64,000 bases of DNA. Source: Escherichia coli. Its GTDB lineage: Bacteria; Pseudomonadota; Gammaproteobacteria; Enterobacterales; Enterobacteriaceae. The notes beneath the pieces were generated by a model. The model saw nothing but the letters and a program-made list of their open reading frames with translations. It made no database searches and was not told where the DNA came from. Every line of letters begins with the position of its first letter. The stretch's first letter is position 1. The translations under genes were made by a program, and so were the position numbers. The stretch lies in NCBI RefSeq assembly GCF_044647545.1, contig NZ_CP172818.1. One strand, given 5' to 3'. Shown here piece after piece: positions 61,668-64,000 of the stretch.

Positions 61668-62337
61668 ACGTTATTTTGTCACCGGAACGGATACCGAAGT
61701 GGGGAAAACCGTCGCCAGTTGTGCACTTTTACAAGCCGCAAAGGCAGCAGGCTACCGGACGGCAGGTTACAAACCGGTGGCCTCTGGCAGCGAAAAGACC
61801 CCGAAAGGCTTACGTAATAGTGACGCGCTGGCGTTACAGCGCAACAGTAGCCTGCAGCTGGATTACGCAACGGTAAATCCTTACACCTTCGCAGAACCCA
61901 CCTCGCCGCACATCATCAGCGCGCAAGAGGGCAGGCCGATAGAAGCATTGGTAATGAGCGCCGGATTACGCGCGCTTGAACAACAGGCTGACTGGGTGTT
62001 AGTGGAAGGCGCTGGCGGCTGGTTTACGCCGCTTTCTGACACTTTCACTTTTGCGGATTGGGTAACACAGGAACAACTGCCGGTGATACTGGTAGTTGGT
62101 GTGAAACTCGGCTGTATTAATCACGCGATGTTGACGGCACAGGCAATACTACACGCCGGACTGACTCTGGCGGGTTGGGTGGCGAACGATGTCACGCCTC
62201 CGGGAAAACGTCACGCTGAATATATGACCACGCTCACCCGCATGATTCCCGCTCCGCTGCTGGGCGAAATTCCCTGGCTTGCAGAAAATCCAGAAAATGC
62301 GGCAACCGGAAAGTACATCAATCTTGCCTTAATGTAG
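61660..62337 (+). CDS. bioD: Dethiobiotin synthetase
   Basis: ORF track 61654..62337; GTG start giving [17 protein letters not shown] (P-loop); 225 aa. Confidence 0.95.
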
Positions 62338-62348
62338 TCATCCTGTAC

Positions 62349-62400
62349 TTGGTTAAATTGCGAGCGAGATCGCGTCTTCGATTGACTGCAATTTAACCAA
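62349..62400. repeat. 13-bp perfect inverted repeat with 26-nt spacer downstream of bioD
   Basis: TTGGTTAAATTGC ... GCAATTTAACCAA, hand-counted. Confidence 0.6.
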
Positions 62401-62496
62401 TTAAATTCTAAAAAAATCACGAAAAAAATTTTACCTCCGCATCATGCGGTGAATGTGGGAATTGCCCAGGCGGCGGGGGATAGGGGCTGCAGACAG

Positions 62497-62519
62497 TTAT
62501 CCACTATTCCTGTGGATAA
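62497..62519. promoter_or_regulatory. Inverted pair of DnaA boxes upstream of uvrB
   Basis: TTATCCACT ... TGTGGATAA match the TTATNCACA consensus. Confidence 0.65.
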
Positions 62520-62821
62520 CCATGTGTATTAGAGTTAGAAAACACGAGGCAAGCGAGAGAATACGCGGCTTGCACGCGAATTGGCGTTAAAGACGGCTCA
62601 AAGAAATATCTTTTATTTTTTAACTGGTTAGATAATTGCAATGGCAGTCACTGAAGAGGCATCTCTTGCCATAAAACTGTCATCACTCATCTTGACAAAT
62701 GTTAAAAAAGCCGTTGCTTTGGGGATAACCCGGTAAGGCCGGAGTTTTATCTCGCCACAGAGTAAATTTTGCTCATGATTGACAGCTGAGTTTACGCTGT
62801 AACAGAAATATTATGGTGAGA

Positions 62822-62845
62822 AACTGTTTTTTTATCCAGTATAAT
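62822..62845 (+). promoter_or_regulatory. uvrB LexA box (SOS operator) overlapping a -10 element
   Basis: CTGT-N8-CCAG motif AACTGTTTTTTTATCCAGTA followed by TATAAT, about 85 bp upstream of uvrB. Confidence 0.8.
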
Positions 62846-62915
62846 TTGTTGGCATAATTAAGTACGACGAGTAAAATTACATACCTGCCCGCCCAACTCC
62901 TTCAGGTAGCGACTC

Positions 62916-64000
62916 ATGAGTAAACCGTTCAAACTGAATTCCGCTTTTAAACCTTCTGGCGATCAGCCAGAGGCGATTCGACGTCTCGAAGAGGGGCTGG
63001 AAGATGGCCTGGCGCACCAGACGTTACTTGGCGTGACTGGCTCCGGGAAAACCTTCACCATTGCCAATGTCATTGCTGACCTTCAGCGCCCTACCATGGT
63101 ACTTGCGCCCAACAAAACGCTGGCGGCCCAGCTGTATGGCGAAATGAAAGAGTTCTTCCCGGAAAACGCGGTGGAGTATTTCGTCTCCTACTACGACTAT
63201 TATCAGCCGGAAGCCTATGTACCGAGTTCCGACACCTTCATTGAGAAAGATGCCTCGGTAAACGAACATATCGAGCAGATGCGTTTGTCCGCCACCAAAG
63301 CGATGCTGGAGCGGCGTGATGTGGTTGTGGTGGCATCGGTTTCCGCGATTTATGGTCTGGGCGATCCTGATTTATATCTCAAGATGATGCTCCATCTTAC
63401 GGTCGGTATGATTATCGATCAGCGCGCGATCCTGCGTCGACTGGCGGAGCTGCAATACGCTCGTAATGATCAAGCCTTCCAGCGCGGTACTTTCCGCGTT
63501 CGTGGGGAGGTGATTGACATCTTCCCGGCAGAATCGGATGACATTGCACTTCGCGTGGAACTGTTTGACGAGGAAGTGGAACGATTGTCGTTATTTGATC
63601 CGCTCACCGGGCAGATTGTTTCCACTATTCCACGTTTTACCATCTACCCGAAAACGCACTACGTCACACCGCGCGAGCGCATTGTGCAGGCGATGGAAGA
63701 AATTAAAGAAGAACTGGCTGCCAGACGCAAGGTGCTGTTGGAAAACAACAAACTGCTGGAAGAGCAGCGGCTGACCCAGCGTACCCAGTTTGATCTGGAG
63801 ATGATGAACGAGCTGGGCTACTGTTCGGGGATTGAAAACTACTCGCGCTTCCTCTCCGGTCGTGGACCGGGTGAGCCACCGCCGACGCTGTTTGATTACC
63901 TGCCTGCCGATGGGCTGCTGGTGGTCGATGAATCTCACGTTACCATTCCGCAAATTGGCGGCATGTATCGCGGTGACCGGGCGCGTAAAGAGACGCTGGT
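62916..64000 (+). CDS. uvrB: Excinuclease ABC subunit B, 5' portion (runs off the window end)
   Basis: ATG at 62916; translation [48 protein letters not shown] stays in frame to position 64000; absent from ORF track because no stop in window. Confidence 0.95.

Follow-up and report, generated by a model that had tools for sequence, protein, structure and literature searches.

DARS1 of Escherichia coli K-12 was reportedly located in the spacer between bioD and uvrB by Fujimitsu et al. in 2009. The element reactivates ADP-DnaA to ATP-DnaA for replication initiation and its core, as published, consists of three DnaA boxes located within the promoter region of uvrB, with a complete consensus in box II and a spacer of 5 bp between boxes I and II (PMC6868365, PMC5742627, PMC5835720). 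Box II is considered to be both the high-affinity nucleating site of DARS1 and the operator of the promoter uvrBp3, and the literature on DARS1 further describes a 42-bp flank and a regulatory region of about 50 bp. Deletion of DARS1 lowers ATP-DnaA and the number of origins per mass and impairs colonisation of the mouse gut, and the element is dispensable for viability. The ChIP-seq entry for DARS1 lists a double box, cTAATACACAtggTTATCCACAg, as bound by DnaA in vivo, with a modest 16-fold signal compared with 78- to 213-fold at DARS2 (PMC11317965).

DARS2 lies in the rppH-mutH spacer of E. coli and carries out the same reaction as DARS1, the release of ADP from DnaA. Its activity requires IHF and Fis on a long regulatory arm, whereas DARS1 works without either protein. 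The first DARS to be found was that of the ColE1 plasmid, a 70-bp element containing three DnaA boxes, and two of these are essential in a defined orientation; it is plasmid-borne, unlike DARS1, and is likened to it here by description.

The uvrB promoter region has also been mapped in its own right, as the P1-P3 cluster with LexA-box1 (Sancar 1982; van den Berg 1985; Wurihan 2018). Footprints of DnaA and LexA have been obtained on this region and both proteins repress transcription; LexA-box1 lies between the -35 and -10 elements of uvrBp2, with uvrBp1 just downstream, and DnaA boxes 5-7, which correspond to DARS1, are placed on uvrBp3 (PMC6015884). A fragment from -567 to -280 has promoter activity, and mutation of the consensus box derepresses uvrBp3 5.9-fold, the effect of DnaA on uvrB having been shown mostly by means of plasmid reporters and of the mutant dnaA(A345S) (PMC6015884). 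At the overlap of DnaA-box1 and LexA-box1, footprinting showed LexA binding to be unaffected by DnaA (PMC6015884). Here, we compare a bioD-uvrB spacer from E. coli with these systems and with its counterparts in other lineages.

Results

The window analysed here is a 64-kb stretch of E. coli DNA in which bioD ends at 62337 and the ATG of uvrB stands at 62916, the 5' part of uvrB (62916..64000, plus strand) running beyond the window end. An initial annotation of this DNA had given a gap of 578 bp between the two genes, which these coordinates confirm and which is the bioD-uvrB spacer. Of 5426 complete E. coli genomes, 5424 contain the gap sequence with 95-100% identity, and among these 5424 there is no RefSeq feature annotated within it.

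Direct reading and scans recovered each motif that the initial annotation had reported, namely the DnaA-box matches at 62497-62519 and the LexA box with its -10 element at 62822-62845, and the distance of about 300 bp that it gave between them was found to be 303 bp when counted from the end of box II. The DnaA-box pair is, however, part of a three-box array that had been missed. Box I (TTATCCACT, 62497-62505, plus strand) has one mismatch to TTWTNCACA and stands head-to-head with box II (TGTGGATAA, 62511-62519, minus strand), which reads TTATCCACA on the minus strand and has the full consensus; box III (TAATACACA, 62523-62531, minus strand) again has one mismatch and lies head-to-tail with box II. 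These are DnaA-box7, DnaA-box6 and DnaA-box5 of Wurihan et al., respectively. The core layout is therefore I(+), 5 bp (ATTCC), II(-), 3 bp (CCA), III(-), with one, zero and one mismatches. This gives the locus three boxes in the DARS orientations at 5-bp and 3-bp spacing, a consensus box II and a position within the promoter region of uvrB. The double box of the ChIP-seq entry is the exact reverse complement of 62510-62532. A box III' has been reported next to box III, for which we found no confident location in the window.

Box II is the sole perfect TTATNCACA within the 64-kb window. With 2.1 perfect 9-mer DnaA boxes expected per 64 kb, a lone match of this kind is not significant; the head-to-head pair with its 5-bp spacer, by comparison, has an expectation of 0.01 per 64 kb, and none of 1000 dinucleotide shuffles produced the three-box core. 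When the gap was compared with that of a K-12-like genome, 14 substitutions were found, none of them affecting the flank, the LexA box or any of the DnaA boxes. The one closest to the core, at 62490, is 7 bp 5' of box I, and two of the 14 fall in the putative uvrBp2 -35; the stretch from 62491 to 62635, core included, is identical. More broadly, the 61 bp around the core show at least 95% identity in 5424/5424 genomes. Compared with DARS1 of E. coli K-12, the locus, the three boxes, their orientations and the 5-bp and 3-bp spacers are the same, with no substantive difference. Sequence identity, layout, non-randomness and conservation are established for this DNA.

The same core layout is found in DARS2 of a K-12-like genome (L002 5317-5351), which reads TTATTCACC, 5 bp, TGTGGATAG, 3 bp, TGTGAAGAA. 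Each of the three DARS2 boxes carries a mismatch, whereas DARS1 has a consensus box II. No IHF-consensus site with one mismatch or fewer was found downstream of the DARS1 core in the window. Two further sequences were observed around DARS2. One is a second core-like sequence, GTTATCCCAGCTTTCTGTGGATAACATGGTGTAAGA (L002 5633-5665), about 315 bp from the DARS2 core, which resembles the DARS1 core and corresponds to the third of the DnaA ChIP-seq peaks given for DARS2 (PMC11317965). The other is a perfect TTATCCACA at +211 from the DARS2 core, in plus orientation.

Directly after box III, the segment 62532..62572 is near-invariant in E. coli, Citrobacter and Photorhabdus. This flank is probably the reported region of about 42-50 bp that enhances ADP release in vitro, its borders being approximate. 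Two more DnaA boxes follow on the minus strand, each with one mismatch. The first, a weak box (TTTTTAACA, 62700..62708, +203 from box I), occupies the position of a strong 'satellite' box in other lineages and is probably one of the DnaA-boxes 2-4 of Wurihan et al. The second (TTATCCCCA, 62720..62728, +223 from box I) is contained in an 11-bp island, TTTGGGGATAA, in which no base varies from E. coli to Photorhabdus. Directly 3' of this island, between uvrBp3 and uvrBp2, there is a small G+C-rich hairpin (CCGGTAAGGCCGG then AGTTTTATCT, 62730-62742), terminator-like in appearance with an ordinary fold energy (z = -0.8), and this candidate hairpin could stop uvrBp3 transcripts.

The LexA (SOS) box (AACTGTTTTTTTATCCAGTA, 62822-62841) is LexA-box1 and is identical to the published uvrB 20-mer. 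The bare pattern CTGT-N8-ACAG with one mismatch was not enriched in the window (19 matches against 19.4 expected) and so was uninformative, and a weight matrix was used in its place, built on 16 SOS boxes known from the literature with uvrB excluded. The LexA box scored 25.3 bits, the best in the window and inside the 18-29 bits spanned by the training boxes; the runner-up among independent sites reached 12.4 bits, and 20 shuffles gave at most 21.0 bits. It has the palindrome-like form CTG-N10-CAG with an AT-rich centre, as well as a score like those of known boxes, and Citrobacter, Photorhabdus and one Vibrio retain its CTG..CAG. With this matrix, the weak LexA-boxes 2-4 described by Wurihan et al. 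did not exceed 4 bits. Within the LexA box there is a DnaA-like 9-mer with two mismatches (TTATCCAGT, 62832-62840), presumably what Wurihan et al. describe as DnaA-box1 in its overlap with LexA-box1.

A consensus scan located two promoter-like sites around this operator. In the first, uvrBp2 (62816..62845, plus strand), GTGAGA and the -10 element TATAAT (62840-62845, plus strand) are separated by 18 bp, a spacer that is filled by the LexA box, so that the operator and the promoter repressed through it overlap. The second, uvrBp1 (62849..62877, plus strand), consists of TTGGCA, 17 bp and TAAAAT; its predicted start near 62884 would place the ATG at about +33, which agrees with published construct coordinates. 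Directly 5' of the LexA box, at 62820-62821, two adjacent substitutions were observed (GA compared with TG in K-12), giving a putative uvrBp2 -35 hexamer of GTGAGA compared with GTGATG in K-12, of which GTGAGA is nearer to TTGACA. The scan gave no promoter-like site at the DARS1 core (62480-62540), and the position of uvrBp3 is accordingly that of the literature. As in the published P1-P3 cluster, the same LexA 20-mer occupies a P2-like spacer, a P1-like promoter lies 33 bp downstream and the DnaA boxes are about 300 bp upstream at P3; no difference from that cluster was detected, with the P3 start site taken as published. The sites that had been annotated initially agree with the published promoter map, which places none of them elsewhere (PMC6015884).

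We then considered how far this arrangement extends beyond E. coli, by scanning one genome per species with UvrB as the anchor, a broad sample containing few enterics. Among the matches listed, at least seven lineages have the core. In Citrobacter, Photorhabdus, Rodentibacter, Haemophilus and two Vibrio species the three boxes keep their orientation and lie 300-419 bp upstream of uvrB, and in Pseudoalteromonas the core is 1.8 kb upstream with a membrane-protein gene between; among the same matches no core was found within 2.5 kb of uvrB in Shewanella, Pseudomonas and others. The core forms an island of identity amid unalignable flanks, and across seven lineages box I is invariant except for its first and last base. 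In the enteric genera conservation runs about 40 bp beyond box III, to 62572, which fits the reported stimulatory flank. Among the matches listed, only E. coli and Citrobacter have bioD on the upstream side, whilst in Vibrio and the Pasteurellaceae an opposite-strand tRNA-Asn was observed upstream of the core (L005, L006, L011, L014; about 1880-2083). The presence of tRNA-Asn rather than bioD in these lineages indicates that the element travels with uvrB and not with the bio operon.

Downstream of every uvrB-linked core there is one more DnaA box in minus orientation, which lies about 201-225 bp from the start of box I. The offset is +206 in L005 and L006, +207 in L011, +209 in L014, +201 in L010 and +223/+225 in the enterics, and the distance from this distal box to the uvrB ATG is 94 to 216 bp, or about 1600 bp in Pseudoalteromonas. 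A distal box falling in a common 5-bp window across three lineages did not occur in 3000 shuffles. A scan of metagenomes for near-perfect head-to-head pairs returned 120 loci (L083-L202), with uvrB nearby in only six of them. Metagenome loci together with the uvrB-linked genome lineages yielded 49 cores, from many lineages, that have a box III and cannot be aligned with one another. A minus-orientation DnaA box is present at +190 to +220 in 35 of these 49 (mode +204), and there are 24 IHF-consensus matches at +120 to +139, with a flat background on both sides; L094, L110, L136 and L159 are examples of metagenome loci with the distal layout. The uvrB-linked cores of the Pasteurellaceae combine a perfect IHF consensus at +122 with a perfect box at +206, and E. 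coli has one-mismatch boxes only (62700-62708 and 62720-62728) and no IHF consensus. These IHF-like sites and distal boxes are consensus matches with strong positional enrichment and should be regarded as predicted sites.

Two side observations were made on the same set of loci. A smaller pile of plus-orientation DnaA boxes occurs at +92..+95 in the 49 cores. Genes adjoining the metagenomic cores, identified by eye, encode a divergent PriA-like helicase (10 loci), a HemW-like radical-SAM protein (5), an M48 peptidase (4), a DnaG primase (4), a YgfZ-like protein (4) and a citrate synthase (3). A 2026 paper ties YgfZ to IHF binding and replication initiation; any connection of the YgfZ-like neighbours to DARS cores would be speculative.

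Discussion

Taken together, these comparisons leave little doubt in our minds that 62497-62531, with a flank to about 62572, is DARS1 and that 62816-62877 comprises uvrBp2 and uvrBp1 under LexA. The initial annotation had proposed that multi-promoter uvrB is controlled by both LexA and DnaA. This agrees with the published map, but the identity of the boxes as DARS1 and the third box at 62523-62531 had escaped it. It had also held that these control sites explain the length of the 578-bp gap, which they do in part, as the gap additionally contains a hairpin after bioD, the DARS1 flank of about 40 bp and the weak DnaA boxes.

The alternative with most to recommend it is that the boxes are a transcriptional operator only, through which DnaA represses uvrBp3 with no role in the DnaA nucleotide cycle. 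Repression of uvrBp3 by DnaA is indeed documented, including the 5.9-fold derepression on mutation of box II (PMC6015884), and DnaA boxes at the uvrB promoter were already noted in 1985-86. Such a purely transcriptional role is nonetheless very improbable, given that DARS1 has been reported to release ADP and that its deletion reduces origins per mass. The 5-bp and 3-bp head-to-head layout is, moreover, common to DARS2, away from uvrB, and recurs at many loci without uvrB, and in Pseudoalteromonas the core stands 1.8 kb from uvrB with another gene between. Head-to-head orientation is a mechanistic requirement of DARS, and so should not be read as a feature of a transcriptional operator.

Less probable still, and in our view hardly credible, is that the inverted repeat GTTATCCAC-N7-GTGGATAAC formed by boxes I and II acts as an RNA hairpin, either as the bio operon terminator or as an attenuator of uvrBp3. 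A terminator scan does flag 62496-62520, and the RNA of boxes I and II folds at -16.3 kcal/mol (z = -3.5). The tail of this hairpin, CATGTGTATT, has no U-run, however, and four of the nine pairs in its stem are G-C. The arms are invariant rather than covarying, the sole arm change (TTATCC to CTATCC in the Pasteurellaceae) being uncompensated, and the terminator reading was rejected on account of the missing U-run and covariation. The conserved letters coincide exactly with DnaA-box positions and conservation reaches box III, which is outside the hairpin. An Rfam scan of 62250-63000 gave no match at E <= 1, and an RNA-family explanation was dropped for this reason. In addition, a stronger hairpin lies directly after bioD. 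This is a long inverted repeat with a 14-bp stem (TGGTTAAATTGC...GCAATTTAACCA, 62349..62400, plus strand), 12 bp after the bioD stop, whose RNA folds at -20.8 kcal/mol (z = -3.2) and which is followed by an A-rich rather than a T-rich stretch. It is identical in the K-12-like genome and only partly kept in Citrobacter. The transcript of the bio operon probably has its 3' hairpin or terminator here, outside DARS1. That the motifs are chance matches in AT-rich intergenic DNA deserves virtually no credence, for whilst about two perfect 9-mers can be expected in 64 kb and the one-mismatch CTGT-N8-ACAG pattern is not enriched, the composite core was absent from all 1000 shuffles, the LexA site scores far above the remaining window and both the DnaA and LexA motifs are kept across genera.

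For DARS1, then, the mechanism can be taken from published work, and DnaA binding, LexA binding, ADP release and repression would all carry over from experiments on the identical K-12 core to the present strain. ADP-DnaA would bind the consensus box II, and the bound DnaA would recruit protomers to box I (head-to-head, 5 bp) and to box III (head-to-tail, 3 bp). ADP would be released through the head-to-head contact, with the involvement of Gln208, after which apo-DnaA would dissociate and bind ATP, raising the level of ATP-DnaA that is needed at oriC. The weak upstream promoter uvrBp3 is expected to overlap the same boxes and to be repressed by the DnaA bound there. LexA on the SOS box in the uvrBp2 spacer would likewise repress until DNA damage triggers LexA cleavage.

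The recurrence of the distal box and the IHF-like site raises the tentative possibility, on which we would not wager at even odds, that E. coli DARS1 is a trimmed version of a much wider DARS unit, about 215 bp long, in which the core is joined by an IHF site near +122 and, oriented like boxes II and III, a distal DnaA box near +204. This wider layout recalls DARS2, in which the core and a distal Fis/DnaA-box region have an IHF site halfway between them, and the lack of an IHF-like site in E. coli DARS1 fits its IHF independence. In the literature that we covered, we found no description of a core/IHF/distal-box layout for DARS1 homologues, and a search for DARS in Vibrio or Haemophilus returned nothing relevant. 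If the unit is real and has gone undescribed, uvrB-linked DARS outside the enterics would be IHF-regulated like DARS2, and 62700-62728, although beyond the 101-bp 'minimal DARS1', might still have an influence in vivo on DARS1 or uvrBp3. The combination of core, IHF-like site and distal box at a fixed distance could help to define DARS outside E. coli, where none was found characterised in the literature covered.

For E. coli itself, the box pair, the SOS box and the identity of DARS1 are all already known, and its biology gains nothing new from their recovery here. What does follow concerns how this DNA is read. The annotation of the bioD-uvrB gap should name DARS1 together with the uvrB P1-P3 and LexA region; the gap is a replication-control element and not a DNA-repair promoter alone.
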